The notes below the pieces were generated by a model that did not search any database, had not been told where the DNA came from, and saw nothing but the letters and a program-made list of their open reading frames with translations. Source: Auanema rhodensis (Eukaryota > Animalia > Nematoda). From it: DNA of 64,000 bases. Made by a program: the position numbers and the translations under genes. Positions within the stretch are counted from its first letter, which is position 1, and each line of letters begins with the position of its first letter. Positions 3,087-55,808 of the stretch are shown here, in pieces. The DNA lies in assembly GCA_964057225.1 (NCBI GenBank), contig OZ059900.1, positions 14,880,001 to 14,944,000 of the forward strand, written 5' to 3'.

Positions 3087-3110
3087 ACAAGATCAAATCA
3101 CTTTTGAAAA

Positions 3111-3269
3111 TATATTTAAAATCATATTCATTTTCTCATAGTCTGTTTGGATCTCTCAACTTGGAACCATTGAGAATCTAAATGGAACTCCTCAAGACTC
3201 AGGCATCTCATCATCTCATTATCTTACTTTCTCTTTATCTGCTTTATATTCTCTTTCTTAACTCTAGCT
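3111..3269 (+). repeat. Scrambled LTR fragments (3' end piece 3111-3188, internal piece 3189-3269) preceding the 5' LTR
   Basis: 3111-3188 matches the LTR 3' end (..ctaaatggaac); 3189-3269 matches the LTR interior (tcctcaagactcagg..tctagct). Confidence 0.85.
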
Positions 3270-3675
3270 TGTTACATACGAAAGCAGCTGACCATGACAG
3301 CTGCTATTATAAAACTACTGCAGATAGTTTTTAAGCAATTCTGAGAATATTCTAGATGCACTTTTTATAAGCTTTGTAACAATTTGTGTAAACTGAGTAG
3401 GAGTTGTATGGATATATAAACCTGAGTCCTCAAGACTCAGGCATCTCATCATCTCATTATCTTACTTTCTCTTTATCTGCTTTATATTCTCTTTCTTAAC
3501 TCTAGCTTTAATCTTTGTATAATTATATTATATTGCGAACAATAAACCTTTATATATTTCATCTCTTGTTTCTTATTTCACCTTACATTACACATTTATA
3601 TTTAAAATCATATTCATCTTCTCATAGTCTGTTTGGATCTCTCAACTTGGAACCATTGAGAATCTAAATGGAACG
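3270..3675 (+). repeat. 5' LTR of Gypsy copy 1 (406 bp, 11-bp deletion near start)
   Basis: TGTTACA...GGAACG; matches 10518-10934 with roughly 14 substitutions by eye. Confidence 0.92.
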
Positions 3676-3693
3676 TGGAGGTTCCACCGAGAT
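3676..3693 (+). promoter_or_regulatory. Primer-binding site complementary to tRNA-Gln 3' end
   Basis: TGGAGGTTCCACCGAGAT directly after the LTR is the reverse complement of ATCTCGGTGGAACCT-CCA, the metazoan tRNA-Gln 3' end. Confidence 0.88.
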
Positions 3694-4873
3694 CCTTCCT
3701 TTTGGACAGGATCTCGTAAAGGAACTCAAGCGCTACCGTCTACATCTCTTATTCAATTAAAAATCTTATCGCTCTCTTAAAGTTAGCTTATAATATTTTC
3801 TTAAAAATTCTAAAACTTTTCTATTAAAAATTATATCCAAAAACTCTTTACAAAAACTCAGTTTTCTATTCATTATATTCTCATAAATCATTTTCAGTTA
3901 TTCAGAAGAGTACCTATATCATTCTCTCTATCCAAAATCCTATATACGAAAATTATTCAAATTCAATAATTAACTTTTCTAAGAATTATAAGTTTATTTT
4001 CACATTTTTTGAACAAAAATAGTTAAGTTCTTTATAAAATTAATTTAGAATTAAGAAATAAAAAGGAATATTGCTTCTATACCTCTCAATCTTAATCATC
4101 TTATCATATTATCTCAATCTTCATCTTATCATACTATTTTAATCATACTATCATACCATATTTTCCTTATTTTCTTTATGTTCGTTTATAAAACTATTAT
4201 TCTTATACTACTACACTGTATTCTCATAAACCCACCCCTTCCCCCCCGTAATTTCATAAGCAAGAAATCCCGTGTTAAACACGACAGTAAAAATATTTAT
4301 TAGGCGCAGCGTATCCAAATTCCGATTACCTTAGCACCTGAAAAAACGAAAAATAATTAAATTAATCAATAAGTTTTAACTCATACGCAAAAACCATTCC
4401 CCCCCTCGTTAAGAATAATGCCAGACACTCAAGAGACTCGAGCGGAGGCCGACACTCAGGATAAGACGTACGCCCCATGAAATAATTAGAGAATTTTTGA
4501 ATTGAAATCTGCCCCACATTGATATAAATAATAAGAGTGGTCTCGCCATCATAGAGTCAGGGAGCAGGATGCAGAAGGCAGCTGACATACCTGTGACTCA
4601 GATAGGTTAATGAGGTCTGGGAAAATGAAATGATTGCGAAAATTCTATTTTGTATCCTTGTCCCAAAAGACTGGCGAACTATTAACTTTCATTTCATGCT
4701 TTTTTCACGATATAGAACTTGTCCCTTCGAAAAGGCACACTAGTTTCAAACCTGTGTTAGACCTGGACGAGCTATATTGGTAAAGAGATTACTTGCAAGA
4801 CTAGCTACCTTCATAAGAATCGCGCACACAAACCCAACATTATTCTTTACGTTTTTCTATATATATAAACATT

Positions 4874-7813
4874 TTGGCACACGTTGGATATAACAAATTT
4901 CTTTACAGGATACCAACGATGCTGCCCAATACTGGTCCAAAACCTCCGCTGGACCCTGCTGCCACTTCAAATATTATAAGAAGAAAAAGGCAACCGCCCG
5001 CAACATATTCTCCCCCCTCTGCAAAACAAGCGAAGTTAAGCATTAAAACAAAGTCAATGGTAATACATACCCCAAGACATCGTGGCATTCAAAAACAATT
5101 CACCAATCCCAAATCACATGAAAAAACGAAGAAACAAAAAACAGACATAGTCGAAAGAAACACCTTAGAAAAGAAAATTATCCCAAGCATTAAACCTATT
5201 CCTAAAAACATAGCAAGCAAAGGGAACCCTCAAAACCCCCCAACCAACACCATACCAAAAACAATCAACCCAATCAATCCTTTAATAGCCACCCCTAGAA
5301 GAAGCAATACACCAACCACACAAAAATCACCTACGCCCGCACTTTCTTCAACCACACCCGCAGTAAGCTCATCCCCACCTCTACGAAACTCACCTTCATC
5401 CATTGATCATTCTACATCTGGGCATTCTCTATTTCCGTCTCTTCCATCGCAAACTAATCAAGCAAATACTTTTGTCGCAGAAAACAAGAGAATTAACCCA
5501 AGAATGGACCCAATGGATGAAGGCGCACCACTTACGCAAACCTCGGGAAGGGCACCTGTTCCAACACCTACAATCATCCCTCAACCAGCAGCGATTCCGT
5601 CCGCCATACGCGATATAAAAACTCCACGCTACGATGGAAAAACACCATTCAACCGCTATCTACTATATCTAGATGAACACTTCAACGCTACAAGAACAAC
5701 TATGCCCGAACGTTTTCAAAGCATACAATTATTGCTAGAAGATGATCGAGCAAGGGGAGCGTACAGAAAACTCACAACCGAAGATAAGCGACTTGGATGG
5801 GACCATGTCAAAAAGCGACTCTCAGAAATGATCACACCGAAAAAACAGAGAGAACGAGCAATGCACCGCCTACATGGCTTGAAACAGTTACCAACGGAAT
5901 CGGTACAAAGCTTTGCAACAAGATGTTCTAACGAAGCCTACTCGGCTATGGACATGAACAACGAAAGTGAGCTTAACATGCTCCGATCCACCTTCACCTG
6001 GGGACTAAGACCCGAAATAAGCGAACATGTTAGCCGTCTAGACCCACCAAACTTTGAGGAAGCTTACGAAATGGCCTTACGAGAAGAACTCTTTATACAA
6101 AATAGACCACCATCGTTCGTCAACAATATGGAGAAGTCGTTCAACAACCTCAACATTCGAGACTCAAAGGACAACAATCAATACCAGAGAAACGAATCTA
6201 AGGATTTCAAAGGAACCAAACCGATGTATAATGGCAATGGCAAACTACACAACCGATATCCGGACAGATACAACAACCAATATCGGCCTCATCAACACCA
6301 ATACAGGAACCATAACTCACGATTTTCTCAAAATAAGGAATCAAGACAAAACTACTTCGACAGATCACGGAACAGAAGCCAGGAAAGACCATACTATCGA
6401 AACCGCGACCAAAACTATAGCGGACACAACAACCGGCGACAATCAAATAATCACGAACAATACCCCTCTCAATACAATCGAAGCCAATACAACAATTATA
6501 GAAGTCGCCCGCGCAGCACCTCCAATGGACCGGAACAGTATAGAGAACGCACACAGAGCCCAGGAGTACGTTTTCAAGTCAACAACGTCACGGAAAACGA
6601 AGTACCGAACAACAAACGAAAATCAACACCATTCCTACCCCTCTTTATCACAATTATCGCACTCATTATAAACACATGCAGTGCAGAAACAACGTACCAG
6701 TTATGCACAGGAAACAGAGGAGGAATATATGTTGAACCGCCATCTCCAACAGCTTGCCGATTCATCGCACCAACTAATAACCATATCCAGAAGACTACAG
6801 CAGAATTGTTCATCCAAAACCTACAACCAAAAGAATGGGAAGCATGGAAATGTGCAATTGAAACTTACCAACTCTGCATTCACGACGTTTTCTTCACCAG
6901 AGAAACTAATGTCTCACTAGCAAAAGTTTCACCAACAACACTGCAAGAATGTTCGTCAGCTATTAAAGAAAGAATATTCAACGGTACCAACCTTCACAGA
7001 GAAGCACCAGGACTCTATGGAACTTCATTCCCACATACAACTATTACTAATGGTATATGGAAACAGGAATGCGAACAACGTACCAGATTCATAGCTGAAC
7101 GAGGACACATGACCAGCCTACAAGACAATACAGTACTCTCAGATATATTCATAAACGACAACGGATGCACCAGTGACAAAGGACAATGCATAACCAACAA
7201 CGCTCTCATCATATGGACCCCACCATCAGAAAAACATAGTTGCTCGTACACTTCATTAGGCTCTCACGAAGTTTTTATATCAGAAGACACCATATTGATT
7301 CCCGGAATTCAAAGTGCTTTCATTCTAAACAATAAAACACCGGAAAAAGAAGCCTCCTCATGCTTACAAAAAGAGATATTTACTACAAATAATGGAACTC
7401 TAATCTCCTTCAACTCAACCTCAAGCTTAGGACGATCAAGAAGACACGCAATCACGGAATACCCTAAAGGATTCTTGACAGTTCATCAATACCCCTCGCT
7501 AAGATATTCAGCCAGCAAAACCGGAACTATTCTACTATATACAACCTATATTCAACGGAAAAGACTTGACATCTATTATAATCTCAATAACATAACAAAT
7601 ATGTTGCCTAAGTATATCGCAATCTTCAAATACCTAGGTATAAATTTTGATGTTATCAAAAATCGTCTTATATGGCACAAATATGAAGACGTCAACATAG
7701 CCATTCTACACGCCCTAGGAGAAGCACAAATAAGAGAAGCAACAAAAATCGCGATCGATAATCTATCGTATAAGGAACTTAAGCATAAACTTAGCAAACG
7801 GATCAAAAATTAA
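4874..7813 (+). CDS. gag: Gag (Pro/Ser/Thr-rich N-term, capsid, N/Q/R/Y-rich tail) fused to internal signal peptide and N-half of envelope glycoprotein; likely start ATG 4919
   Basis: Retrotransposon capsid-like PRYDG..F..Y and LKQ..ESVQSFATR segments; hydrophobic FLPLFITIIALIINTCSA (6632-6685); then Cys-rich region with N-glycosylation sequons and RSRR furin-type site (7433-7444). Confidence 0.85.
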   Translation: MAHVGYNKFLYRIPTMLPNTGPKPPLDPAATSNIIRRKRQPPATYSPPSAKQAKLSIKTKSMVIHTPRHRGIQKQFTNPKSHEKTKKQKTDIVERNTLEKKIIPSIKPIPKNIASKGNPQNPPTNTIPKTINPINPLIATPRRSNTPTTQKSPTPALSSTTPAVSSSPPLRNSPSSIDHSTSGHSLFPSLPSQTNQANTFVAENKRINPRMDPMDEGAPLTQTSGRAPVPTPTIIPQPAAIPSAIRDIKTPRYDGKTPFNRYLLYLDEHFNATRTTMPERFQSIQLLLEDDRARGAYRKLTTEDKRLGWDHVKKRLSEMITPKKQRERAMHRLHGLKQLPTESVQSFATRCSNEAYSAMDMNNESELNMLRSTFTWGLRPEISEHVSRLDPPNFEEAYEMALREELFIQNRPPSFVNNMEKSFNNLNIRDSKDNNQYQRNESKDFKGTKPMYNGNGKLHNRYPDRYNNQYRPHQHQYRNHNSRFSQNKESRQNYFDRSRNRSQERPYYRNRDQNYSGHNNRRQSNNHEQYPSQYNRSQYNNYRSRPRSTSNGPEQYRERTQSPGVRFQVNNVTENEVPNNKRKSTPFLPLFITIIALIINTCSAETTYQLCTGNRGGIYVEPPSPTACRFIAPTNNHIQKTTAELFIQNLQPKEWEAWKCAIETYQLCIHDVFFTRETNVSLAKVSPTTLQECSSAIKERIFNGTNLHREAPGLYGTSFPHTTITNGIWKQECEQRTRFIAERGHMTSLQDNTVLSDIFINDNGCTSDKGQCITNNALIIWTPPSEKHSCSYTSLGSHEVFISEDTILIPGIQSAFILNNKTPEKEASSCLQKEIFTTNNGTLISFNSTSSLGRSRRHAITEYPKGFLTVHQYPSLRYSASKTGTILLYTTYIQRKRLDIYYNLNNITNMLPKYIAIFKYLGINFDVIKNRLIWHKYEDVNIAILHALGEAQIREATKIAIDNLSYKELKHKLSKRIKN

Positions 7814-7955
7814 GGATTTTAAGAAGATACTACAAACCAAAACAGGAGACTACTATGAAATCGCGAAAGAAATTGCTTACTCACTTGCGGAAATACCTAC
7901 TACGTTAGCTACAGGAGAAACAACACCATCTTTAGAAGAATACTTATATCAACTC

Positions 7956-10322
7956 ATGCCACCAAGAAAACCAAGACTCACCAAGACACGAAACGATTTA
8001 GAACTGTACGAACAACTAGCACAAGCAAAAATTATCCTGAACGCAATGAATAATCCGAAGAAGCTACATTCAAAAGAAGAATACGAAGCAGAAATGAAGA
8101 AATGGATCAAATATGAAAAAGAACTGAATTTACCACCATTACAACTGCCAAACTACACAGTTATCTTCGATGGCGACGATATATTCTACGGCTTCCGGAA
8201 AAGAAATCCTACAAATTATAGCATTACACAAGAGGATAGTGAAAAATTTTATAATCATTATCTACCCCTTATCAGTACTCCCGGAACACGACCTTTTGCA
8301 ACCACAATTAGAAGCACTTCGACCCCCCTACAAACTACTACTACAACCACTACCACGACCCCTAAGCCTACAACCATAAGAAACGTCATCACTTCGGCAA
8401 TCACACCCAAAACACATATATCCACAACAACTAGACCCAAACCAACAATACCCACGTCTTCATCAACTACTACTACTACTACCACTACTACTACTACTAC
8501 TTCTACTACTGCTAGACCCAGATCAACAACAACCACAACACCTACAACAACCACAACTATATTCACCACTCATCGACCAACACAATCATTCTCCACCCCC
8601 CAATCTACATTCAATATTACTACAAACCCAATCACAATCACCTCAAGCCAGGAATACAATAGGAAAGAATCACTCACCAAGTCACCGCCTCCAAGAACTA
8701 CAAAAAGATCTATCACTACCACTCGCAGCACACCTGAAGAAATATCATCACATATTGGTAAGAAATCCCACGTAGACTACATTAAAGCTAAGAACGATAT
8801 CGTCCAAAAATGGAATGAACATCTTCATCAACAAGAAACGCAATCTCATCTACAATATGCCACTACCAATCTGGAAGATGATATCATACGTACGTTCACA
8901 ACAAACAGAAACAACATCTGCCACGTACAAAATAAACAAATACTTACCTGGTGGGCTATTCTTCAAATAAATCCTACTATAGGGATGCGTACAATGCTAC
9001 GACGACAGGATATATCTGCAAGATTCATAAATGATAAACTAATTTATGTAATGCCATGCACACCAATTCAAATTACAAAAACATACCGTGATCACAAAGT
9101 CAACAGCACGTGTTTTCTGGAAACCCCAGTCAAAACGGAACATCACGGCCAACTGTTCATCCTACCAGGTACAAGAGACCTCACACCGATGGCACATGCC
9201 ATACCATGCGGACTCACAATCAAGGATCCCTGGAAAGAAAACGATCAATGGACTAATAATAACCAATCAATAAATGTAACATCACCAGCATACATCGACG
9301 AGTTAGGATCAATCAACCTAGAACATATCAAGTTTAATGGAAGCAACATTTTCAACAACCTAACAGAATCAACGTTTCCTATGGCACTAGCAATATCATA
9401 TGGATCCAGCTTAGCAACGCTACAGGCTACTTTACCAGGAAGAATAAAACCTGTAATCAAACAAAGATTAATTCCTAACATGAACCCTGTTACCCTAACA
9501 GCAGGAGCAGCCAGCAGCTTACTACTCAGCTACGAACATGCAAAAGAAGCTATAACTTGGAAAATGTTTGACTTTCTGTCACCAATATGGGAAAAGATTC
9601 AAACCTGGACACTACGCGTACTTGCTATCATTGGATCAATCATCATAACAATTGGCATAATCACACTCGCCACCTGGATAATAAAAATATACACATGTAG
9701 TTCAAGGATACCCATCAACAATGTCAAATGGGAAACAGAATACTTACAACCACTACCAACTGAGAACACAAGAACAGAAACATCTCATCCTTCTCCGTCC
9801 GCTCCATACCTCGACAACCATCACAACAGCTGTCAACTCACATTGTATGATCCTTCAGCACCAATTCCTGAACACATTTATGAAGCTTATTTCCCTACAA
9901 GCATGAAGAAAGAAAACATAAACTACATAGGAGGATCACAATTACCGTTTGTCCCGATTTCAATCCACAATCACATCTTTAAGGCACTATGGGACACGGG
10001 AGCATCAGCATCATACATGCGAGAATCCACCTTCAAACAACTGCCCGCTGCAACGATGGTACTAAAACAAACAACAGCGATAGTCGCGAATAAATCTAAA
10101 TTCTCATTTATGGGATACACAAGGATCCTCATAACAATAGGAACAACAGAAACAGAACACAAATTTTATGTAGCAGAAGATAACTACTGTCCAGCACCAG
10201 TGTTACTTGGAATAGACTTCATGGAAGCATTACATCAACAAGGAATTTACACTTCAATGGAGCTACTTGGACTAGCATCAATGACGGAAATGATCCAGGA
10301 AATTGACCAACTGGCGGATTAA
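7956..10322 (+). CDS. env: C-half of gB-like Env (Thr-rich mucin tract, gB core, TM) + aspartic protease, fused to last 21 codons of the accessory ORF; frame is open from ~7734
   Basis: HLQY..ICHVQN..W..INP..ISARFINDK..PCTPI resembles herpes gB domains III/IV; TM VLAIIGSIIITIGIITLATWII; protease ALWDTGAS and LLGIDF; ends MELLGLASMTEMIQEIDQLAD identical to the ORF 46765-47448 C-terminus. Confidence 0.85.
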   Translation: MPPRKPRLTKTRNDLELYEQLAQAKIILNAMNNPKKLHSKEEYEAEMKKWIKYEKELNLPPLQLPNYTVIFDGDDIFYGFRKRNPTNYSITQEDSEKFYNHYLPLISTPGTRPFATTIRSTSTPLQTTTTTTTTTPKPTTIRNVITSAITPKTHISTTTRPKPTIPTSSSTTTTTTTTTTTTSTTARPRSTTTTTPTTTTTIFTTHRPTQSFSTPQSTFNITTNPITITSSQEYNRKESLTKSPPPRTTKRSITTTRSTPEEISSHIGKKSHVDYIKAKNDIVQKWNEHLHQQETQSHLQYATTNLEDDIIRTFTTNRNNICHVQNKQILTWWAILQINPTIGMRTMLRRQDISARFINDKLIYVMPCTPIQITKTYRDHKVNSTCFLETPVKTEHHGQLFILPGTRDLTPMAHAIPCGLTIKDPWKENDQWTNNNQSINVTSPAYIDELGSINLEHIKFNGSNIFNNLTESTFPMALAISYGSSLATLQATLPGRIKPVIKQRLIPNMNPVTLTAGAASSLLLSYEHAKEAITWKMFDFLSPIWEKIQTWTLRVLAIIGSIIITIGIITLATWIIKIYTCSSRIPINNVKWETEYLQPLPTENTRTETSHPSPSAPYLDNHHNSCQLTLYDPSAPIPEHIYEAYFPTSMKKENINYIGGSQLPFVPISIHNHIFKALWDTGASASYMRESTFKQLPAATMVLKQTTAIVANKSKFSFMGYTRILITIGTTETEHKFYVAEDNYCPAPVLLGIDFMEALHQQGIYTSMELLGLASMTEMIQEIDQLAD

Positions 10323-10517
10323 AGAAGAGAGGAAAGGTTTAAATCATTTATAAAATTCTATCTCTTGAAAAAATTTTTCTCTTTATCAATAGTTTGTTGA
10401 AAAAAAAAAATTTGCTTTATCTCATGCCATTTTAATTTTTTTATTTTTTTATTTTTCTCTCTTAATTATTATTTGCATATAACAGCTGAGGTCAGCTGAC
10501 TTGTATCCGTTGGGGCA

Positions 10518-10934
10518 TGTTACATACATATCTCAAAGGAAAGCAGCTGACCATGGCAGCTGCTATTATTAAACTAATGCAGATAGTTTTTAAGCAATTC
10601 TGAGAATATTCTAGATGCACTTTTTATAAGCTTTGTAACAATTTGTGTAAACTGAGTAGGAGTTGTATGGATATATAAACCTGAGTCCTCAAGACTCAGG
10701 CATCTCATTATCTCATTATCTTACTTTCTCTTTATCTTCTTTATATTCTCTTTCTTAACTTTAGCTTTAATCTTTGTATAATTATATTATAATGCGAACA
10801 ATAAACCTTTATATATCTCATCTCTTGTTTAATATTTCACCTTACATTACACACTTATATTTAAAATCATACTCATCTTCTCATAGTCTGTTTGGATATC
10901 TCAACTTGGAACCATTGGGAATCTAAATGGAACG
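10518..10934 (+). repeat. 3' LTR of Gypsy copy 1 (417 bp)
   Basis: TG start after short GGGG tract; TATATAAA 10672-10679; AATAAA ~10800; ends GGAACG, then array resumes at ctgtctct. Confidence 0.95.
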
Positions 10935-13900: not shown

Positions 13901-14914
13901 ACAGACGCGGATACTCACCACTATACTACCGAGGATTGAATTTGCACTTAGAAACTTTCATTAAGAGTGTGAGTTTGAATTATAGTAGAAAAATGAAACA
14001 CTGTCTCTAACATATCTTGATTTATGGCCTACTTTACTCAAAGAGCTAATGGAAGTTTGGTGTTAGAATGAACAATTGATTAACGCTGACGTTTCAATTT
14101 TTTTCATCGTAATTGAGATAGAACATTTAAATTACATGGAAATGTTTAAAAATTTAGAAAAAATCACAAGCTCAAATCACTTTTGAAAAAACAGAAAGTT
14201 TAAAACAACCTTTTTTCTAATAATTATCTTTTTTATCCGACTTTTGTAAAAAAACAAAAATAGCATAACATTCAATAACGATGAATCAGAACAAAAACAT
14301 TCTCCCCGGCCGGGAATTGAACCCGGGTCTCGCATGTGACAGACGCGGATACTCACCACTATACTACCGAGGATTGAATTTGCACTTAGAAACTTTCTTT
14401 AAGAGTGTGAGTTTGTATTATAGTAGAAAAATGAAACACTGTCTCTAACATATCTTGATTTATGGCCTACTTTACTCAAAGAGCTAATTGAAGTTTGGTG
14501 TTAAAATGAACAATTGATTAACGCTGACGTTTCAATTTTTTTCATCGTAATTGAGATAGAACATTTAAATTAAATGGAAATGTTTAAAAATTTAGAAAAA
14601 ATCACAAGCTCAAATCACTTTTGAAAAAACAGAAAGTTTAAAACAACCTTTTTTCTAATAATTATCTTTTTAATTCGACTTTTGGAAGAAAACAAAAATA
14701 GCATAACATTCAATAACGATGAATCAGAACAAAAACATTCTCCCCGGCCGGGAATTGAACCCAGGTCTCGCATGTGACAGACGCGGATACTCACCACTAT
14801 ACTACCGAGGATTGAATTTGCACTTAGAAACTTTCATTAAGAGTGTGAGTTTGAATTATAGTAGAAAAATGAAACACTGTCTCTAACATATCTTGATTTA
14901 TGGCCTACTTTACT
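10935..14914 (-). repeat. tRNA-Asp tandem array, segment B (9 tRNA copies)
   Basis: Exact 438-bp spacing; tRNAs from 11236-11307 to 14740-14811. Confidence 0.96.
11236..11307 (-). tRNA. tRNA-Asp(GTC), first copy of segment B
   Basis: Consensus sequence; TTTTT Pol III terminator a few bases downstream on the minus strand. Confidence 0.97.
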
Positions 14915-15188
14915 TTTTTTGTTCGCATTAACACTTTAACCGCTTATTGAATTTGAATTGATACTCTCTGGTATCCTTTATACATTTACATTAAGTTGGT
15001 AAGTTATTTTATAAGTTCAATTTGTTTTATTTTAATTTTATTATTTCACATTTTATATTGTTTATATTTCATTCACATCTGTTATCTTATACAATTTCCT
15101 TTGTTCATCTGTCCAGAAATAAATCTTTTGTCTCAAATTACTCATCCTTTTCATACACATACTTTCTGATCAATCAAACATTAATATT

Positions 15189-23750: not shown

Positions 23751-23887
23751 TTGATGACGGGTTCAATACCCAGTGAGTCCTCGATTTATTTTCTCGATTT
23801 CTTAGTTCCCTATCATAGCAAACGATTGTTCAATTTGATTTACACCAGTCCTACACAATTTATCATTTCGCCGGGGGGAGGTATACT

Positions 23888-24307
23888 ATGTATAAAAACC
23901 ATCATTATTTCAGTCTTGATAACATCAAAGAATGGAGCGATTCCCTTGATCAACTCCAGGATAACGGCAACGCAAAGATGCCAAACAAAGGTCAGAATAT
24001 GTCTGCACCAAAAAAGCAGAACAACTCTAAAGTGAAGTACAGAAAAATGGAAGAAGACATGAAATGTCAACTCTGTTGGAAGAAGGGCCACACCATGGGA
24101 AAATGCACAGTCTACAAGACTGCAGCACAACGCGTCAAGCGTTGCAAGTTGATCAACATGTGCTTGAAGTGTTTGCGGAACCACTTTGGAAAACCGTGTG
24201 TGGAGAAGATGAAGAAAATATGTCATGTGTGCAAAGGAAGCGGACTGGACCACGATCATCCTGGTGTATTATGCAAGCTGCAGTTTGCGGAGGAACTAGC
24301 AGAATGA
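23888..24307 (+). CDS. Small basic protein with three Cys/His (Zn-knuckle-like) clusters
   Basis: CQLCWKKGHTMGKC, CLKCLRNHFGKPC, CHVC..HDHPGVLC; same layout as the BEL gag knuckles upstream. Confidence 0.7.
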   Translation: MYKNHHYFSLDNIKEWSDSLDQLQDNGNAKMPNKGQNMSAPKKQNNSKVKYRKMEEDMKCQLCWKKGHTMGKCTVYKTAAQRVKRCKLINMCLKCLRNHFGKPCVEKMKKICHVCKGSGLDHDHPGVLCKLQFAEELAE

Positions 24308-24340
24308 AATCAGTTCTGATTTCTCTCTCCTGGCCCGGAA

Positions 24341-24695
24341 TATCGCGAATGCGATTATTCATCATTCAATCGATGCAATCTCATCACGTTGGCTGATGAG
24401 AGTCACGGACACTCTGTTTTATACCACCGTCGCGGACGGTCGCTTTTCTCTCTCCTCGCTGCTGTCTTTATCTTATGACTCATCTAGTCTGAACCACCGT
24501 TTTATCCTTGTCCTTTAGTAAGACTATCTCTAGTCTAATTAGTGATGTATATCTAGTCTTATTACATTCACTCTAGTCTTCTATGTACTTTATCTAGTCT
24601 TATTATATATCTTCTAGTCCTTATATTCTATATTATGTATATCTGAATGGCATATGAATGAATCTTTCTTCCTCTAATAGTCTTTTATGTTAACA
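24341..24695 (+). repeat. Putative 3' LTR of the BEL element
   Basis: Starts TATCGCG after GGCCCGGAA (compare TGTCGCG terminus of the solo LTR at 63589); AATGAA ~24657; ends TAACA; ~6 TCTAGTC motifs; no partner LTR to confirm ends. Confidence 0.45.
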
Positions 24696-24753
24696 GGGCA
24701 TAGAATAGAAAGTGTGAACCTGGGAGGCTATTTGAAGAGCCCTCTATCTTCAA

Positions 24754-24807
24754 AACCCGGGTCTCGCATGTGACAGACGCGGATACTCACCACTATACTA
24801 CCGAGGA
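24754..24807 (-). pseudogene. 3'-truncated tRNA-Asp (nt 1-54) at the BEL right junction
   Basis: tRNA match begins at aacccggg; T-loop remainder and acceptor 3' strand are missing. Confidence 0.88.
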
Positions 24808-25173
24808 TTGAATTTGCACTTAGAAACTTTCATTAAGAGTGTGAGTTTGAATTATAGTAGAAAAATGAAACACTGTCTCTAACATATCTTGATTTATGGC
24901 CTACTTTACTCAAAGAGCTAATTGAAGTTTGGTGTTAGAATGAACAATTGATTAACGCTGACGTTTCAATTTTTTTCATCGTAATTGAGATAGAACATTT
25001 AAATTAAATGGAAATGTTTAAAAATTTAGAAAAAATCACAAGCTCAAATCACTTTTGAAAAAACAGAAAGTTTAAAACAACCTTTTTTCTAATAATTATC
25101 TTTTTTATCCGACTTTTGTAAAAAAACAAAAATAGCATAACATTCAATAACGATGAATCAGAACAAAAACATT

Positions 25174-46164: not shown

Positions 46165-46581
46165 CGTTCCATTTAGATTCTCAATGGTTCCAAGTTGAGA
46201 GATCCAAACAGACTATGAGAAGATGAGTATGATTTTAAATATAAGTGTGTAATGTAAGGTGAAATAAGAAACAAGAGATCAAATATATAAAGGTTTATTG
46301 TTCGCATTATAATATAATTATACAAAGATTTAAGCTAGAGTTAAGAAAGAGAATATAAAGAAGATAAAGAGAAAGGAAGATAATAAGATAATGAGATGCC
46401 TGAGTCTTGAGGACTCAGGTTTATATATCCATACAACTCCTACTCAGTTTACACAAATTGTTACAAAGCTTATAAAAAGTGCATCTAGAATATTCTCAGA
46501 ATTGCTTAAAAACTATCTGCATTAGTTTAATAATAGCAGCTGCCATGGTCAGCTGCTTTCCTTTGAGATATGTATGTAACA
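46165..46581 (-). repeat. 3' LTR of Gypsy copy 2
   Basis: Direct repeat of 55392-55808. Confidence 0.96.
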
Positions 46582-46764
46582 TGCCCCAACGGATACAAGT
46601 CAGCTGACCTCAGCTGTTATATGCAAATAATAATTAAGAGAGAAAAATAAAAATTAAAAAAAAAATGGCATGAGATAAAGCAAATTTTTCAACAAACTAT
46701 TGATAAAGAGAAAAAATTTTAAGAGATAGAATTTTATAAATGATTTAAACCTTTCCTCTCTTCT

Positions 46765-47448
46765 TTAATCCGCCAGTTGGTCAATTTCCTGGATCATTTC
46801 CGTCATTGATGCTAGTCCAAGCAGCTCCATTGTTCTGATGGTTTGGCTAACTGCTTTTGCCTTACTTTTTGATGCGGACATGTTGGTAGTCCTTTTTGTC
46901 AGTAGTTTTTTGATTACTACTGATAGGTCTTGCCCTATCTCTATCCACGATGCTTCTTCTTCGGTTCCGCTATTTCCTACAGCTTGTTGTGTCATCTGTG
47001 TTGTCCATGTCGGCATTGCTTTGTAGATGTCAGCTGTGGTCTGCGTTCTGGCGGGTTGTCCCAGCATTATGTTTCGGATTCTGTTCTCTTTCTGGCTGAG
47101 AGAACATCCTTCTGTCCATTTCTTTTGATGCTGGCGAAGCTCCTTCAGATCGTGATCCTTATAGTTTTTGGTTTTCTCCTCCAATAGTTCCATCATAAAT
47201 AGGATGTGCTGTGTCTTCTTTTCCAATTTGCTCGTTTGGAGGCTTATTATTGGTCCTAAGTTGGGCTTCATGCAGTTGATAGGTAGAAGACCTTCACGAA
47301 GGTTTTCTACCTCTATCCATTCTTGTTCAATAGTGGTCGCTAGAGGGACCAGTGGTGTTGGAGTTGCGAGGAATGTAGAGAGTGTGACGTTGGCGAGAGA
47401 GGAGGTCATTTTGAGTAAGAAAAGTGTTATTGAATTTTTCTCTATCAA
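46765..47448 (-). CDS. Accessory ORF of unknown function between pol and 3' LTR; likely start ATG 47409
   Basis: 227-codon open frame in element sense; C-terminal 21 codons conserved in copy 1 with synonymous differences. Confidence 0.7.
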   Translation of the reverse strand: MIEKNSITLFLLKMTSSLANVTLSTFLATPTPLVPLATTIEQEWIEVENLREGLLPINCMKPNLGPIISLQTSKLEKKTQHILFMMELLEEKTKNYKDHDLKELRQHQKKWTEGCSLSQKENRIRNIMLGQPARTQTTADIYKAMPTWTTQMTQQAVGNSGTEEEASWIEIGQDLSVVIKKLLTKRTTNMSASKSKAKAVSQTIRTMELLGLASMTEMIQEIDQLAD

Positions 47449-47612
47449 AATTTTCTCTTTATATAGTTTGTTTTTCAGTGATTGTTACAATTTGTTAAAA
47501 TTAAAGGATAGAAATTAGAATTTCGGTGGTTTTTGATCTATGTCTTATGTTTAATGTACTATACGAAAGAAAGGAAAATTATTTTTACAATTCTACGATT
47601 TTTGTTAGTTAA

Positions 47613-50600
47613 TTAAAAGTTTCGTACTTGTTCTCCTTTGTTTTGCGATGGGGATTTATTCTGCTGCTTTTTGCTTTGATCCGCTTTTCCATGTAGTTCC
47701 AATTCTCCATTACTTCTGATTTCTTCGTCTCGTGTTTTTCTTTTGGGTTGTAGTTTAACATGATACGGGCGTGAGTTTTCATTTCCTATTCCTAGTGCTG
47801 CGGCAAGTGTAGTGTTCCAATTTTTGATTGCTGGTGAGTTTTTGTTTCTGTCCTCAAATAGCTCCTTTCTGTTTTCATTCTTGAATTGATCTCGTAGCTT
47901 TTCGTATGTTTTTGCGTTATTATCTTCTATATCGTTTTGATTAGGACCTTCTTCTTGAGAGAAAGGTGTCAGCTGTCTGAGGTCCTCTTGAATTCTGTCG
48001 ATTGTTGTTGATTCATTTTCTAATTGTATATTAGAATTTGTTATTCTTCTTGCTGTAGCAAGGTCGTCAGGTGTTTCTGAATTATGTTCAATTTCTTCTT
48101 CGTTTACTCCTCTGTTATTCCCTGTGATAGGTAACAGTTGCGCGAGAGTATCTGGACTGCCTGTTGGGTAACAGTTGTTGTTATTTTCCGTATTATTGGT
48201 TTGTTCCCATTCATCCAGATTATTCCAACTTGTTTCTTCTTCTTCTTCTTCTTCGTTTGCTATGTCTTGGTCCTCTTCTTCCTCTTCTTCATTATTTCTT
48301 GTTGATATAAGATTATCGTCTGGTGGAAAATAACGTATGTTATTTTTGTGAGCTTTTATAACATTTCCATCTTGGTCCGTTATGCTGATGTTGTTTCCTT
48401 CAATTGTCACAATCCGGTAAGGTCCATCTCTTCGTATTTGTAATTTGTTGCTTGGGTTCGCTCTTTGTACAAATACTCGATCTCCTATATCTAATATTCT
48501 TTCTTTTGTCCTATGTGCTTGATCGTATTTCTGCTTCATTCTTTCTTCATTGGTGGCAATCTTTTCCTTGACTTTTTCTTGAATATCTCTTAAGTTTTTG
48601 AGCTGATCCGTGGTATTTTGTTCTTCCGGTGTTTCCAAGTTTTTGTCAATGGGTAGACGTGCTACTTGTCCAAACAAACATTCGTATGGTGATGTTTTAG
48701 TGGTGGCGTTTGGTAATCTGTTGAGTGTAAAAATAATCTTCGGAAGTATCTTATCCCAATCGTTTTGTTCGTCATTAACGTAGGCTGTTAATGCTTCTTC
48801 GATCGTCCGATGTAATCTTTCTACTTGTCCGTTAGCGTTTTTGTAATACGGCATAGTAGTGTGGTGTGTAGTTCCAAAATTACTGCACATAGTGGTGAAA
48901 TCGTTTGAAATAAAATTAGATCCATTGTCTGTGATGATAGTGACAGGTGGTCCAAAAACATAGAAGAGGTATTTTTCGATAGCTGATATAATTTCTTCTG
49001 ATGTTTGTCTGATTAGCGGAATTGCGATTATCCATTTTGAAAAAGAATCTTGAATTGAAAGAACATATCTGTTTTCTTGTTCTGTCCTAGGTAATGGTCC
49101 GAGTATATCCATGTGTACTCTTTGCCATGGTTTTGTTGATGTTGGAAAATTTTTCATTGGTTCCACCGTTGCTTCATGAGGGTTGTTCTTTCTTTTCGCA
49201 CAAGCAAGACATCTGTTGATGTAGTTTGTAATGTCTTCTTGCATTCCAGTCCATGTAAATCGTCTTGATATTGAGTCCATTGTTTTGTTTATTCCTAGAT
49301 GAGCTCCGAGTGTCGGATCTTCATGAAATTTCTTCATAATTGGATTAATTATGTGCTCTTCTCGTGGTAAAATTGTTCGTGGTACTTGTAGGCTTCTTTT
49401 TGGTTTTGAGTATAGTACATCGTTGTACACAATATATCTGTCCGTCAGTTGTCGTCCAGCTGTATTATTCTTTATTTTATCCATAGTTTCTTTTATCCAA
49501 TTTGATTGATTCTGAACTGATCGAATATCTGCTATCGTGAAGGTGTTTATCTGATGAATAGTATCTTCCGTCGTTTTTCTTTCGTTTTTCTTCTTTGCTG
49601 GTGGTTTTGCTTCGTTGATTTCATCTTCAAAATATCGTGATAATGCGTCACATACACTGTTTAATTTTCCTGGTCTGTAGATAATTTCAATATCGTATTC
49701 TTGTAAAACAATTTGAAATTTTGCTAAACGACCTATTAAATCCTTTCTAGTCATTAAACTAGTGAGTGGTCTATGGTCCGTGATAATTTTGGTTGCTGTT
49801 CCTAGTATGTAGGTGCGGAATTGTTTGACGGCGAATGTAAGAGCTAATGCTTCTACTTCTATTGGTGGATAATTCCTTTCAGCTTTGTTGAGTTTCCGAC
49901 TAGCAAAAGCTATTGGATGTAATGGTTCTTGATCGTCTTTCGCTTGAAGTAGTACAGCGCCAACTGCTATCATACTTCCATCACTTTCAATAACATATGG
50001 TCGTTTCGGGATTGGTGCTTGTAACACAGGTGCTTGAGTCAATGTTTTCTTCAAAGTATTAAAAGCAATTTCTTCTTCTTCTGTCCATTTGAACGGAGTG
50101 TCTTTCCGAGTGAGGTTGTAGAGTGGTGTTGCTATTCCTGCAGCGTTCTTTATGAACCTTCTGAAGTAGTTTACTACTCCCATGAAAGCTCTTACTCCTG
50201 TTGTTGATTTTGGTTGGGAATAATCTTGTATTGCCTTAATTTTATGTGGGTCCGGTTTAATTCCTTCTTGTCCAACTATGTATCCTAGAAATTTTACTTC
50301 CTTTCTTGCGAATGCGCATTTCTTCAGTTTTATTTTGAATCCTATTTGAGTTACTGCTTCCAAAACTTCTTCAATATCTTTTAAATGTGCTGTCGTAGAT
50401 TCAGAGATTAACAGTAAATCATCTAGATATACGAATAGCTTGCATTTAACCATTGATTGCAGGTATCGTACTGCGTTTTGAAAAGTATGGGGTGATCCAC
50501 ATAATCCCATCGGCATTCGACAATATTGATAAGTTCCACTTGTTGTTGTGAAAGCTGTAAGATGACGATCTTCTTTCTTAAGAGGTATTTGGAAAAATCC

Positions 50601-53600
50601 AGATACTAAATCAAAGTTGCTGAAGATCCTTGCTCCAGCGGCCAAATCTAGGATGTCCTGTATGTTTGATATGACATATACTTGTTTCTGAGTGATTGCA
50701 TTCAGAGCTCGAAAGTCCGTTACAAATCTATGAGTTTTGTCTTTCTTCTTCACCAAAATTACTGGACTAGTTGTCATTGAGTTTGATGGTTCAATGATTC
50801 TTTGTTGTAGCATTTCTTCTATTTGTTTCTCCACTTCTTCTTGTTGGGAGAGTGTTATACGATAAGTAATTTTGAATGATGGTGTTTTTCCTGGCATGAT
50901 TGGAATGGAGTGTTCAATTGGTCCTAGGAAGAGTCCGATATTTCTATCTTCGTTGAGAAACGCTTGTTTATGTAGTAAAATTATTTCTTTCAGTTGCTGT
51001 TGTTCGATTTGTGAGAAGCAGGCTTCTGAAAGGTCAAGCTCATTGATGAAATTGTCTGGGAAATATGGCAGTTGTTCTTCCCATCGAGCTTCTGGAGGTA
51101 TGTATTGTCCTTCGTATTTTTCTTGGTTGTCCTTTGGTATCGCTTCTGCTATCCCTATTTCTTGATTCATTTGAATTTCGAGTGGCTGTTTGCATATGTT
51201 CGTCGCGTAAATTTGTACTCCGTATCCAGTGGGCGTAAATATGGTAGGCGTAAAAGAGAGTTTGTTGCCTGGTTTCTTACAATCTAGAAACGCTTGTTCA
51301 TAGCTTTCTGGATCGTGTACTTCTAGCGTGAGCGTTCTTGTTTCTCCTGGTCTTAGCGTTTTGTTTTCTAAGCTAACCACATATGCTTTCGTGGTCTGGT
51401 GTTCCCACGGAGATGTTTCTCGTGCTAGTGGAACATGTGTTGTGCCGATAACAATTGTTTTATCCAGCGGTCGAAGTGAGGTGTAAATTCCTTGTTGATG
51501 TAATGCTTCCATGAAGTCTATTCCAAGTAACACTGGTGCTGGACAGTAGTTATCTTCTGCTACATAAAATTTGTGTTCTGTTTCTGTTGTTCCTATTGTT
51601 ATGAGGATCCTTGTGTATCCCATAAATGAGAATTTAGATTTATTCGCGACTATCGCTGTTGTTTGTTTTAGTACCATCGTTGCAGCGGGCAGTTGTTTGA
51701 AGGTGGATTCTCGCATGTATGATGCTGATGCTCCCGTGTCCCATAGTGCCTTAAAGATGTGATTGTGGATTGAAATTGGGACAAACGGTAATTGTGATCC
51801 TCCTATGTAGTTTATGTTTTCTTTCTTCATGCTTGTAGGGAAATAAGCTTCATAAATGTGTTCAGGAATTGGTGCTGAAGGATCATACAATGTGAGTTGA
51901 CAGCTGTTGTGATGGTTGTCGACGTATGGAGCGGACGGAGAAGGATGAGATGTTTCTGTTCTTGTGTTCTCAGTTGATAGTGGTTGTAAGTATTCTGCTT
52001 CCCATTTGACATTGTTGATGGGTATCCTTGAACTACATGCGTATATTTTTATTATCCAGGTGGCGAGTGTGATTATGCCAATTGTTATGATGATTGATCC
52101 AATGATAGCAAGTACGCGTAGTGTCCAGGTTTGAATCTTTTCCCATATTGGTGACAGAAAGTCAAACATTTTCCAAGTTATAGCTTCTTTTGTATGTTCG
52201 TAGCTGAGTAGTAAGCTGCTGGCTACTCCTGCTGTTAGGGTAACAGGGTTCATGTTAGGAATTAATCTTTGTTTGATTACAGGTTTTATTCTTCCTGGTA
52301 AAGTAGCCTGTAGCGTTGCTAAGCTGGATCCATATGATATTGCTAGTGCCATAGGAAACGTTGATTCTGTTAGATTGTTGAAAATGTTGCTTCCATTAAA
52401 CTTGATATGTTCTAGGTTGATTGATCCTAACTCGTCGATGTATGCTGGTGATGTTACATTTATTGATTGGTTATTATTAGTCCATTGATCGTTTTCTTTC
52501 CAGGGATCCTTGATTGTGAATCCGCATGGTATGGCATGTGCCATCGGTGTGAGGTCTCTTGTACCTGGTAGGATGAACAGTTGGCCGTGATGTTCCGTTT
52601 CGACTGGGGTTTCCAGAAAACACGTGCTGTTGACTTTGTGATCACGGTATGTTTTTGTAATTTGAATTGGTGTGCATGGCATTACATAAATTAGTTTATC
52701 ATTTATGAATCTTGCAGATATATCCTGTCGTCGTAGCATTGTACGCATCCCTATAGTAGGATTTATTTGAAGAATAGCCCACCAGGTAAGTAGTTGTTTA
52801 TTTTGTACGTGGCAGATGTTGTTTCTGTTTGTTGTGAACGTACGTATGATATCATCTTCCAGATTGGTAGTGGCATATTGTAGATGAGATTGCGTTTCTT
52901 GTTGATGAAGATGTTCATTCCATTTTTGGACGATATCGTTCTTAGCTTTAAGGTAGTCTACGTGGGCTTTCTTACCAATATGTGATGATATTTCTTCAGG
53001 TGTGCTGCGAGTGGTAGTGATAGATCTTTTTGTAGTTCTTGGAGGCGGTGACTTGGTGAGTGATTCTTTCCTATTGTATTCCTGGCTTGAGGTGATCGTG
53101 ATTGGGTTTGTAGTAATATTGAATGTAGATTGGGGGGTGGAGAATGATTGTTTTGGTCGATGAGTGGTGAATATAGTTGTGGTTGTTGTAGGTGTTGTGG
53201 TTGTTGTTGATCTGGGTCTAGCAGTAGTAGAAGTAGTAGTAGTAGTAGTGGTAGTAGTAGTAGTAGTTGATGAAGACGTGGGTATTGTTGGTTTGGGTCT
53301 AGTTGTTGTGGATATATGTGTTTTGGGTGTGATTGTCGAAGTGATAGTTGTTCTTGTAGCGTTGAAGTGTTCATCTAGATATAGTAGATAGCGGTTGAAT
53401 GGTGTTTTTCCATCGTAGCGTGGAGCTTTTATATCGCGTATGGCGGACGGAATCGCTGCTGGTTGAGGGATGATTGTAGGTGTTGGAACAGGTGCCCTTC
53501 CCGAGGTTTGCGTAAGTGGTGCGCCTTCGTCCATTGGGTCCATTCTTGGGTTAATTCTCTTGTTTTCTGCAACAAAAGTATTTGCTTGATTAGTTTGCGA

Positions 53601-54173
53601 TGGAAGAGACGGAGATAGAGAATGCCCAGATGTAGAATGATCAATGGATGAAGGTGAGTTTCGTAGAGGTGGGGATGGGCTTACTGCGGGTGTGGTTGAA
53701 GAAAGTGCGGGCGTAGGTGATTTTTGTGTGGTTGGTGTATTGCTTCTTCTAGGGGTGGCTATTAAAGGATTGATTGGGTTGATTGTATTTGGTATGGTGT
53801 TGGTTGGGGGGTTTTGAGGGTTCCCTTTGCTTGCTATGTTTTTAGGAATAGGTTTAATGTTTGGGATAATTTTCTTTTCTAAGGTGTTTCTTTCGACTAT
53901 GTCTGTTTTTTGTTTCTTCGTTTTTTCATGTGATTTGGGATTGGTGGATTGTTTTTGAATGCCGCGATGTCTTGGGGTATGTATTACCATTGACTTTGTT
54001 TTAATGCTTAACTTCGCTTGTTTTGCAGAGGGGGGAGAATATGTTGCGGGCGGTTGTCTTTTTCTTCTTATAATATTTGAAGTGGCAGCAGGGTCCAGCG
54101 GAGGTTTTGGACCAGTATTGGGCAGCATCGTTGGTATCCTGTAAGGAAATTTGTTATATCCAACGTGTGCCAA
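47613..54173 (-). CDS. pol: Gypsy polyprotein: truncated Gag / C-half Env - protease - RT - RNaseH - integrase with long acidic tail
   Basis: WDTGA; SPVILVKKKD, DLVSGFFQI, MPMGL, YLDD; ESDGS..VGAVL, EALAL, TDHRPL, DALSR; H..H..C..C, HMDILGP, TDNGSNF, NGQVER; GPY motif; order PR-RT-RH-IN is Ty3/Gypsy. Confidence 0.96.
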   Translation of the reverse strand: MAHVGYNKFPYRIPTMLPNTGPKPPLDPAATSNIIRRKRQPPATYSPPSAKQAKLSIKTKSMVIHTPRHRGIQKQSTNPKSHEKTKKQKTDIVERNTLEKKIIPNIKPIPKNIASKGNPQNPPTNTIPNTINPINPLIATPRRSNTPTTQKSPTPALSSTTPAVSPSPPLRNSPSSIDHSTSGHSLSPSLPSQTNQANTFVAENKRINPRMDPMDEGAPLTQTSGRAPVPTPTIIPQPAAIPSAIRDIKAPRYDGKTPFNRYLLYLDEHFNATRTTITSTITPKTHISTTTRPKPTIPTSSSTTTTTTTTTTTTSTTARPRSTTTTTPTTTTTIFTTHRPKQSFSTPQSTFNITTNPITITSSQEYNRKESLTKSPPPRTTKRSITTTRSTPEEISSHIGKKAHVDYLKAKNDIVQKWNEHLHQQETQSHLQYATTNLEDDIIRTFTTNRNNICHVQNKQLLTWWAILQINPTIGMRTMLRRQDISARFINDKLIYVMPCTPIQITKTYRDHKVNSTCFLETPVETEHHGQLFILPGTRDLTPMAHAIPCGFTIKDPWKENDQWTNNNQSINVTSPAYIDELGSINLEHIKFNGSNIFNNLTESTFPMALAISYGSSLATLQATLPGRIKPVIKQRLIPNMNPVTLTAGVASSLLLSYEHTKEAITWKMFDFLSPIWEKIQTWTLRVLAIIGSIIITIGIITLATWIIKIYACSSRIPINNVKWEAEYLQPLSTENTRTETSHPSPSAPYVDNHHNSCQLTLYDPSAPIPEHIYEAYFPTSMKKENINYIGGSQLPFVPISIHNHIFKALWDTGASASYMRESTFKQLPAATMVLKQTTAIVANKSKFSFMGYTRILITIGTTETEHKFYVAEDNYCPAPVLLGIDFMEALHQQGIYTSLRPLDKTIVIGTTHVPLARETSPWEHQTTKAYVVSLENKTLRPGETRTLTLEVHDPESYEQAFLDCKKPGNKLSFTPTIFTPTGYGVQIYATNICKQPLEIQMNQEIGIAEAIPKDNQEKYEGQYIPPEARWEEQLPYFPDNFINELDLSEACFSQIEQQQLKEIILLHKQAFLNEDRNIGLFLGPIEHSIPIMPGKTPSFKITYRITLSQQEEVEKQIEEMLQQRIIEPSNSMTTSPVILVKKKDKTHRFVTDFRALNAITQKQVYVISNIQDILDLAAGARIFSNFDLVSGFFQIPLKKEDRHLTAFTTTSGTYQYCRMPMGLCGSPHTFQNAVRYLQSMVKCKLFVYLDDLLLISESTTAHLKDIEEVLEAVTQIGFKIKLKKCAFARKEVKFLGYIVGQEGIKPDPHKIKAIQDYSQPKSTTGVRAFMGVVNYFRRFIKNAAGIATPLYNLTRKDTPFKWTEEEEIAFNTLKKTLTQAPVLQAPIPKRPYVIESDGSMIAVGAVLLQAKDDQEPLHPIAFASRKLNKAERNYPPIEVEALALTFAVKQFRTYILGTATKIITDHRPLTSLMTRKDLIGRLAKFQIVLQEYDIEIIYRPGKLNSVCDALSRYFEDEINEAKPPAKKKNERKTTEDTIHQINTFTIADIRSVQNQSNWIKETMDKIKNNTAGRQLTDRYIVYNDVLYSKPKRSLQVPRTILPREEHIINPIMKKFHEDPTLGAHLGINKTMDSISRRFTWTGMQEDITNYINRCLACAKRKNNPHEATVEPMKNFPTSTKPWQRVHMDILGPLPRTEQENRYVLSIQDSFSKWIIAIPLIRQTSEEIISAIEKYLFYVFGPPVTIITDNGSNFISNDFTTMCSNFGTTHHTTMPYYKNANGQVERLHRTIEEALTAYVNDEQNDWDKILPKIIFTLNRLPNATTKTSPYECLFGQVARLPIDKNLETPEEQNTTDQLKNLRDIQEKVKEKIATNEERMKQKYDQAHRTKERILDIGDRVFVQRANPSNKLQIRRDGPYRIVTIEGNNISITDQDGNVIKAHKNNIRYFPPDDNLISTRNNEEEEEEDQDIANEEEEEEETSWNNLDEWEQTNNTENNNNCYPTGSPDTLAQLLPITGNNRGVNEEEIEHNSETPDDLATARRITNSNIQLENESTTIDRIQEDLRQLTPFSQEEGPNQNDIEDNNAKTYEKLRDQFKNENRKELFEDRNKNSPAIKNWNTTLAAALGIGNENSRPYHVKLQPKRKTRDEEIRSNGELELHGKADQSKKQQNKSPSQNKGEQVRNF

Positions 54174-55373
54174 AATAATTTTATATATAGAAAAACGTAA
54201 AGAATAATGTTGGGTTTGTGTGCGCGATTCTTATGAAGGTAGCTAGTCTTGCAAGTAATCTCTTTACCAATATAGCTTGTCCGGGTCTAACACAGGTTTG
54301 AAACTAGTGTGCCTTTTCGAAGGGACAAGTTCTATATTGTGAAAAAGGCATGAAATGAAAGTTAATAGTTCGCCAGTCTTTTGGGACAAGGATACAAAAT
54401 AGAATTTTCGCAATCATTTCATTTTCCCAGACCTCATTAACCTATCTGAGTCACAGGTATGTCAGCTGCCTTCTGCATCCTGCTCCCTGACTCTATGATG
54501 GCGAGACCACTCTTATTATTTATATCAATGTGGGGCAGATTTCAATTCAAAAATTCTCTAATTATTTCATGGGGCGTACGTCTTATCCTGAGTGTCGGCC
54601 TCCGCTCGAGTCTCTTGAGTGTCTGGCATTATTCTTAACGAAGGGGGGATGGTTTTTGCGTATGAGTTAAAACTTATTGATTAATTTAATTATTTTTCGT
54701 ATTTTCAGGTGCTAAGGTAATCGGAATTTGGATACGCTGCGCCTAATAAATATTTTTACTGTCGTGTTTAACACGGGATTTCTTGCTTATGAAATAACGG
54801 GGGGGGGGGGAAGGGGTGGGTTTATGAGAATACAGTGTAGTAGTATAAGAATAATAGTTTTATAAACGAACATAAAGAAATTAAAAATATGGTATGATAT
54901 GATGATTAAGATAGTATGATAAGATGAAGATTCAGATAATATGATAAGATGATTAAGATTGAGAGGTATAGAAGCAATATTCTTTTTTTTTTTTTTTTTA
55001 TTTCTTAATTCTAAATTAATTTTATAAAGAACTTAACTATTTTTGTTCAAAAAATGTGAAAATAAACTTATAATTCTTAGAAAAGTTAATTATTGAATTT
55101 GAATAATTTTCGTATATAGGATTTTGGATAGAGAGAATGATAAATGATATAAGTACTCTTATGAATAATTGAAAATGATTTATGAGAATATAATGAATGG
55201 AAAACTGAGTTTTTTGTAAAGAGTTTTTGGATATAATTTTTAATAGAAAAGTTTTAGAGTTTTTATGAAAATATTATAAGCTAACTTTAAGAGAGAGATA
55301 AGATTTTTAATTGAATAAGAGATGTAGACGGTAGCGCTTGAGTTCCTTTACGAGATCCTGTCCAAAAGGAAGG

Positions 55374-55391
55374 ATCTCGGTGGAACCTCCA
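55374..55391 (-). promoter_or_regulatory. Primer-binding site (tRNA-Gln)
   Basis: Same 18-mer as 3676-3693, abutting the 5' LTR. Confidence 0.88.
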
Positions 55392-55808
55392 CGTTCCATT
55401 TAGATTCTCAATGGTTCCAAGTTGAGAGATCCAAACAGACTATGAGAAGATGAGTATGATTTTAAATATAAGTGTGTAATGTAAGGTGAAATAAGAAACA
55501 AGAGATCAAATATATAAAGGTTTATTGTTCGCATTATAATATAATTATACAAAGATTTAAGCTAGAGTTAAGAAAGAGAATATAAAGAAGATAAAGAGAA
55601 AGGAAGATAATAAGATAATGAGATGCCTGAGTCTTGAGGACTCAGGTTTATATATCCATACAACTCCTACTCAGTTTACACAAATTGTTACAAAGCTTAT
55701 AAAAAGTGCATCTAGAATATTCTCAGAATTGCTTAAAAACTATCTGCATTAGTTTAATAATAGCAGCTGCCATGGTCAGCTGCTTTCCTTTGAGATATGT
55801 ATGTAACA
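55392..55808 (-). repeat. 5' LTR of Gypsy copy 2
   Basis: TGTTACA...GGAACG on minus strand, 417 bp. Confidence 0.96.

Follow-up and report, generated by a model that had tools for sequence, protein, structure and literature searches.

Within a 64,000-nt stretch of the Auanema rhodensis genome (contig OZ059900.1; hereafter the window), we found a Ty3/gypsy retroelement, copy A, whose env gene encodes a fusogen of the herpesvirus glycoprotein B (gB) type. In this protein, the loop opened by a furin-type cleavage site is enlarged by a helical domain and by a threonine (Thr)-rich, mucin-like tract. The reading that we favour is that of a defective Ty3/gypsy env whose furin loop, made up of these two modules, probably forms a head for attachment, carried by a stalk with O-glycans; the head-on-stalk role taken by itself, deduced from the sequence, is advanced more tentatively. 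The coordinates of all features are collected in Table 1.

A gB-type fusogen in a nematode Ty3/gypsy element

What kind of fusogen does copy A encode? The original prediction, a model's reading of the DNA, had proposed a class III envelope of the gB type, and this proposal held. First, the env scores 45.9 bits with the Pfam family PF24664 (Monjiviricetes_fusion), whose cut-off is 27 (E 2.7e-12); PF00606 gave E 4e-6, under its cut-off of 43, a phmmer comparison with the gB chain 8y48 of the PDB gave E 0.0035, and a profile of the env family matches herpes gB at 1e-13. Second, the peptides that had been quoted as parallels to gB are present in the second open reading frame (ORF) of copy A, 7734-10322: QSHLQY at 8841, NICHVQ at 8913, WWAILQ at 8949 and CFLETP at 9111. 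Third, all 14 conserved cysteines of the family occur in the env of copy A, including all four within the core. Fourth, the AlphaFold model of a relative, P0126, matches gB and Chandipura G and has a five-domain fold with a long central helix; this is a monomer model of a protein about 22-28% identical to copy A, for which it serves as a proxy. A single-sequence fold of the N-terminal half of the env of copy A with the first part of the insert reached a predicted local distance difference test (pLDDT) of only 33.7. Judged by its sequence, the env of copy A is a class III fusogen with a likeness to gB beyond chance, and fusion activity is predicted.

Herpesvirus gB and the G proteins of Monjiviricetes (Nyamiviridae, Chuviridae and Xinmoviridae) share with this env the class III fold, the order of domains and a cleavage loop between domains II and III, at just 9-13% identity to the P0126 model. 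Strands of that model suggest a fusion-loop role for two conserved hydrophobic segments, and the cysteines presumably pair as disulfides. Cleavage of the internal signal segment is predicted near CSA/ET; relatives have a hydrophobic peak at the equivalent position. The PSAP motifs of the cytoplasmic tail may act as late domains: among the env tails of relatives, P[ST]AP occurs in 6 of 22 and [ST]AP in 10 of 22, against 26 occurrences in 25,761 pol residues (one protein without a protease was dropped from this count).

The env of copy A lies between gag and protease and not behind the integrase, and the full gag-env-pol order is present in relatives. Reverse transcriptase (RT), RNase H (RH) and integrase (IN) have been deleted from copy A after position 10255, so that 4644 nt are missing in comparison with copy B, a second member of the same family in the window. 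In copy B, protease (PR), RT, RH and IN follow one another in a single ORF of 2205 aa, all as gypsy-type domains, which bears out the assignment to a Gypsy lineage. The BEL/Pao pol domains Peptidase_A17, DUF1759 and DUF5641 had no Pfam match in copies A and B and are found in a neighbouring ORF at 15123-23750. Ascaris Tas and Anakin are BEL/Pao elements with a gB/chuvirus-like env; they resemble copy A in carrying a class III env within a retroelement flanked by long terminal repeats (LTRs), whereas the pol is of the BEL/Pao type in them and of the Ty3/gypsy type here, and Tas, which the original prediction had brought in for comparison, is the wrong comparator.

For the RT-RNase H of copy B, the nearest relative is an Auanema sp. 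JU1783 protein with 77% identity, followed by Heterorhabditis and Caenorhabditis elements. In a maximum-likelihood tree of RT, copy B pairs with the JU1783 protein (SH-aLRT support 100), and the pair is nested in a clade of 12 rows and a larger one of 26, each likewise with a support of 100; this was a quick tree with a midpoint root and 42 of the 121 available rows, from which most Cordylochernes and many other rows were omitted, as were the named elements of PMC13524379. A profile detects the gB core in 21 of the 26 members of the larger clade, the others being shorter models, and the N-terminal half of the env aligns best to nematode element proteins. These relatives were reached with an RT query, word-index searches with the env core having returned 0 of 1605 and 0 of 1808 candidates; a scan of IMG/VR found no relative.

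An env of the gB type in nematode Gypsy elements has already been published: according to Chary and Hayashi (eLife 2026, PMC13524379), who credit the first report for nematodes to Sacco et al. 2022, the errantiviruses of nematodes, bryozoans and platyhelminths carry only HSV (herpes simplex virus)/gB-type ENV, in the order GAG-ENV-POL, and supplement 6 of that paper includes two Auanema genomes with ENV-POL matches. Copy A agrees with the C1 group of nematode "ancient errantiviruses" described there in gene order, Ty3/gypsy pol and a tRNA-Gln primer-binding site (PBS). The reverse complement of its PBS is the PBS given for Clat_errantivirus_4 and Ctro_errantivirus_1 in supplementary file 1, and its cysteine pattern in domains I-II, compared by eye, resembles the Nematoda_C1 rows. 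Copy A is thus almost certainly a member of the nematode GAG-ENV-POL Ty3/gypsy (Metaviridae) group, and likely a rhabditid one.

The Auanema sp. JU1783 proteins P0001, P0122 (CAI4220545.1), P0123 (CAI4220633.1) and P0125 (CAI4220786.1) show 77% identity to the family of copies A and B in RT, 56% in protease, 46% in the core and 32-43% in the helical insert. P0001 has a TTTTTTPKP-type tract and a PSAP tail, as in the copy A family; these elements nevertheless form a separate family, with a different mucin repeat unit.

An insert in the furin loop

The large insert and mucin tract of the original prediction, estimated there at about 250 and 150 residues, are both present at the furin loop, in sizes close to those estimates. 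The env is split across two frames, and the break lies inside the insert, within the overlap 7734-7813 of the two ORFs; except at this point, the gag-env-PR reading frame of copy A is unbroken, and env core and pol form one ORF in copy B. Contigs of seven of eight public runs bridge the break region and differ from copy A there (the eighth had no coverage), and the Auanema protein P0123, read in one frame without a stop, aligns with the sequence on either side of the break (E 1e-28 and 9e-27). We therefore consider that the break is likely private to copy A or its assembly and that the insert genuinely belongs to the env of this family, while copy A itself is unable to make a whole env protein. 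A nested insertion or an assembly artefact was rejected as the source of the insert: the window holds no second copy or repeat of it, its base composition is similar, contigs span it, and in a relative it is read in a single frame.

The insert had also been taken for a novelty of this element, a view that did not survive comparison with relatives. Among 266 proteins screened, 163 match a profile of the env N-terminal half, 94 match the core, and 87 match both well enough for the length of the linker between them to be measured. Linkers range from 12 to 506 aa (median 59), with at least 150 aa in 29 of the 87, at least 200 in 22 and at least 400 in two; the linker of copy A, about 469 codons, is the second longest after one of 506 aa in Aphelenchus. 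In HSV-2 gB, the corresponding loop has about 26 residues (461-486) and no folded domain. The 29 long linkers start with a basic site in 26 cases (by a loose pattern), 21 contain a serine/threonine-rich tract of at least 40 residues, 19 match the helical-domain profile, and 12 have both. Removal of the insert through cleavage at two furin sites, as for p27 of respiratory syncytial virus, is not general: 4 of these 29 have a second strict basic site.

The helical domain, the Thr tract or both recur in elements of Auanema, Caenorhabditis and Ancylostoma, with the helical domain right after the furin-type site. Profile-profile alignment by hhalign joined the Auanema and Caenorhabditis helical groups with a probability of 96.6% (E 6e-10) and the Caenorhabditis and Ancylostoma/C. 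remanei groups with 66.5%; reversed controls gave 0.5% or less. A profile made without copy A gives the first part of the copy A insert 22.7 bits, a score reached by none of 1000 shuffled sequences; a profile of the Ancylostoma/C. remanei group alone did not detect this part. The homologous domain of P0126 folds at a pLDDT of about 90. We conclude that the insert is very probably an inherited feature of the clade. Its second part (7734-8270) appears restricted to the lineage, because only two Auanema proteins among the 266 match it.

Searches of Pfam, of the ESM Atlas and with a structure model, all of them weak tests, assigned no fold to the helical insert. Pfam gave no match better than E 0.05 for the insert pieces or P0123, and the ESM Atlas gave no usable match (best TM-score 0.33, on a poor model), a result that bears on neither novelty nor absence. 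A structure search with the whole P0126 model returned gB and coiled coils and barely probed residues 255-370. Four proteins from Aphelenchus and other elements (P0242, P0158, P0209 and P0127) carry post-furin inserts of 310-506 aa of another sequence type, as if domains of more than one kind had entered the furin loop.

The copy A family thus has a post-furin module, with a linker among the longest, that the main text of PMC13524379 does not describe. Our literature searches also returned no account of a post-furin helical domain or mucin tract, although Sacco et al. 2022 or the figure supplements may hold one; in the Cer1 literature, the "mucin" passage concerns plg-1, and we found nothing there on such an env. 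Beyond the published gB-type env, what may be new is a defined, foldable domain of about 115 residues, present at the cleavage loop in the fusogens of many nematode retroelements.

Possible roles of the insert

How might such a module work? We propose that, in intact members, one polyprotein would be made, in which the hydrophobic segment behind Gag would send the Env ectodomain into the endoplasmic reticulum and signal peptidase would free it. The transmembrane segment would bring the chain back to the cytosol, where the PSAP tail, with possible recruitment of ESCRT, and then PR-RT-RH-IN would follow. A furin-like protease would cut at RSRR, and disulfides would keep the half with the fusion loops joined to the anchored half, as happens in gB. 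The anchored half would then start with the helical domain as its free end, which would project on some 150 glycosylated residues ahead of the central helix and could bind the surface of a host cell; refolding of the gB core, and with it fusion, would follow. The order of site, helical domain, Thr tract and core is constant in copy A and in the eight relatives with both modules that were inspected, which corresponds to a head-on-stalk layout. Herpes gB needs partner proteins, and rhabdovirus G does its own receptor binding. A preprint (bioRxiv 10.64898/2026.02.03.703472) describes O-glycosylation of the matching domain II loop of HSV gB and the binding of this loop to PILR-alpha and MAG. If true, a head-on-stalk module would offer a concrete handle on the choice of target cells by endogenous viruses, in worms close to C. 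elegans.

Several points weigh against this proposal. Linkers shorter than 150 aa are found in 58 of the 87 relatives with both env halves, so a gB-type fusogen can do without the insert; even among the 29 long linkers, the helical match is absent in 10, and 7 of the 19 carriers have little or no Thr tract. Eight of the 19 helical-domain matches are training rows of the profile, the alignment of the Auanema with the Ancylostoma/C. remanei group is weak (32%, E 5e-4), and many relatives are automatic gene models, prone to lost or added sequence. The evidence on folding comes from P0126 and not from copy A, and binding by the domain and O-glycosylation of the tract are predictions.

A rather less probable role is that of a clamp or chaperone, in which the helical domain would cap the prefusion trimer and set the threshold for triggering, with the Thr tract as a tether that lets it swing away. 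The domain does sit between the cleavage site and the refolding central helix, and its all-helical nature with no conserved cysteine (one of nine at a single column) fits a packing role; however, most relatives lack it and yet have the same 14 cysteines, a spacer of 150-230 aa is long for a clamp, and few linkers, as counted above, have the second strict basic site needed to cut the insert out.

Viral mucin domains often act as shields, and mucin-only linkers exist here (P0037, P0038, P0046, P0148, P0167 and P0169), so that the Thr tract might be a glycan shield or a guard against proteases or lectins, with the helical domain as incidental scaffolding. We regard this as unlikely: nematodes are not known to have antibodies, so that a shield would lack its usual purpose, and a conserved folded domain would be left unexplained.

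Still less probable is neutral growth of a tolerant loop, through slippage of ACT/ACA repeats and drifted sequence of no function. The spread of linker lengths and the ease with which Thr tracts arise by triplet slippage would fit this, as would the codon changes that separate copies A and B over the shared 8388-10256, 13 of them nonsynonymous and 4 synonymous, a pattern expected of decaying copies; yet the helical part is homologous across genera in the hhalign comparison, stop-free in P0123 and confidently folded in P0126. That this Gypsy lineage captured its gB-like env independently, together with a new insert, as first predicted, is very improbable: the narrow distribution of the second half of the insert and the finding that GAG-ENV-POL elements are not monophyletic across phyla (PMC13524379) speak for it, but the RT nests among gB-env carriers (SH-aLRT 100), the env N-terminal half is closest to nematode element proteins, the PBS is common to published elements, and a nematode GAG-ENV-POL group was already published.

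Antisense RNA, the two copies and their surroundings

Between positions 5018 and 9945, 13 of 16 distinct joints correspond to GT-AG introns on the minus strand, antisense to the element. They come from four runs, guessed to be RNA, of one study, each joint having a chance probability of about 2.4%, and none were found in four runs guessed to be DNA. The introns are mostly of 43-78 nt, with others of 469 and 1016 nt, and several joints recur in three runs. A protein-coding antisense RNA was rejected, the longest stop-free stretch being 123 aa in the exon chain tried. Spliced and apparently non-coding antisense RNA thus covers env, possibly with a silencing or regulatory role. Extending the head-on-stalk proposal, one may speculate, with considerable doubt, that rhabditid and strongylid GAG-ENV-POL retroelements share, by inheritance across the clade, a one-chain class III entry machine with an attachment protein of their own, in which a helical domain of possibly new fold, exposed by furin on a mucin stalk, would be a swappable receptor-binding head that sets which worm cells are entered, and that the host answers with spliced antisense RNA.

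Table 1. Positions of the features of copies A and B within the window
Feature	Position	Strand	Details
Copy A, Ty3/gypsy element	3270-10934	+	LTR, PBS, ORF 4817-7813, ORF 7734-10322, 3' LTR
Copy A 5' LTR	3270..3675	+	406 nt, TG...CG ends
tRNA-Gln type PBS	3676..3687	+	sequence
ORF	4817-7813	+	gag and first part of env, one frame
Gag	4919..6622	+	Retrotrans_gag E 1.6e-5, above cut-off; in frame with env N-terminal half
Internal signal/hydrophobic segment between Gag and Env	6623..6685	+	hydropathy peak
Env domains I-II	6686..7432	+	10 family cysteines; 149 homologues
Candidate hydrophobic fusion loops	DVFF ~6884-6895, GIW ~7052-7060	+	conserved hydrophobic columns
Furin-type site RSRR	7433-7444	+	sequence
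Helical insert	7445..8270	+	~276 codons; first ~120 aa = clade-wide core
Thr/Ser/Pro-rich mucin-like tract	8271..8732	+	154 aa: 65 T, 19 S, 17 P
ORF	7734-10322	+	remaining env and protease, one frame
gB-type core: central helix (domain III), domain IV, domain V/membrane-proximal region	8790..9602	+	PF24664, PF00606
Transmembrane anchor	9603..9695	+	hydropathy up to 2.5
Cytoplasmic tail with two PSAP late-domain-like motifs	9795..9863	+	motif positions
Aspartyl protease	9930..10255	+	gag-asp_proteas E 2.7e-8
Copy A 3' LTR	10518..10934	+	purine-rich tract just before
Copy B, same family	46165..55808	-	LTRs identical (417/417), 4-nt target duplication GCAT

Copies A and B are both defective. They are 97-99% identical across their shared parts, and copy B is without 2684 nt that comprise the end of gag, the env N-terminal half and the helical insert. 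This deletion is in frame: at 47613-54230 (minus strand), the start of Gag runs on into the mucin tract, followed by the env core, the transmembrane segment and a full pol. With its identical LTRs, copy B is a recently inserted non-autonomous derivative. The two LTRs of copy A share 392 matches, with 14 mismatches and 11 gap columns, and no target duplication was found for this copy. All four LTRs (3270-3675, 10518-10934, 46165-46581 and 55392-55808) end in AACG, giving TG...CG and not the usual TG...CA, and the PBS directly adjoins the LTR end. Rearranged LTR fragments of 78 and 82 nt lie at 3090-3270, immediately to the left of the 5' LTR of copy A. In copy B, an open frame of 239 codons at 46765-47484 (minus strand), between pol and the 3' LTR, had no Pfam match and may be an accessory ORF.

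The window is filled from 1 to 64000 by a 438-bp tandem array with 82 tRNA-Asp(GTC) genes, which three retroelements interrupt. Copy B lies about 40 nt from the end of a tRNA gene. The insertions may reflect targeting of the array or just the use of a safe harbour. The neighbouring BEL/Pao ORF at 15123-23750 is uninterrupted over 2875 aa, resembles Atlas/Cer13 and encodes a phlebovirus-like Gc (PF07245, E 3e-63); self-BLAST of 14801-25000 found no LTR pair for it. An element with a class II env and one with a class III env thus adjoin in the window. Behind this ORF, at about 23891-24305 (plus strand), lies a small Cys/His-rich ORF (CQLC...H...C; CLKC...H...C; CHVC...H...C) that resembles a zinc-knuckle piece of gag.
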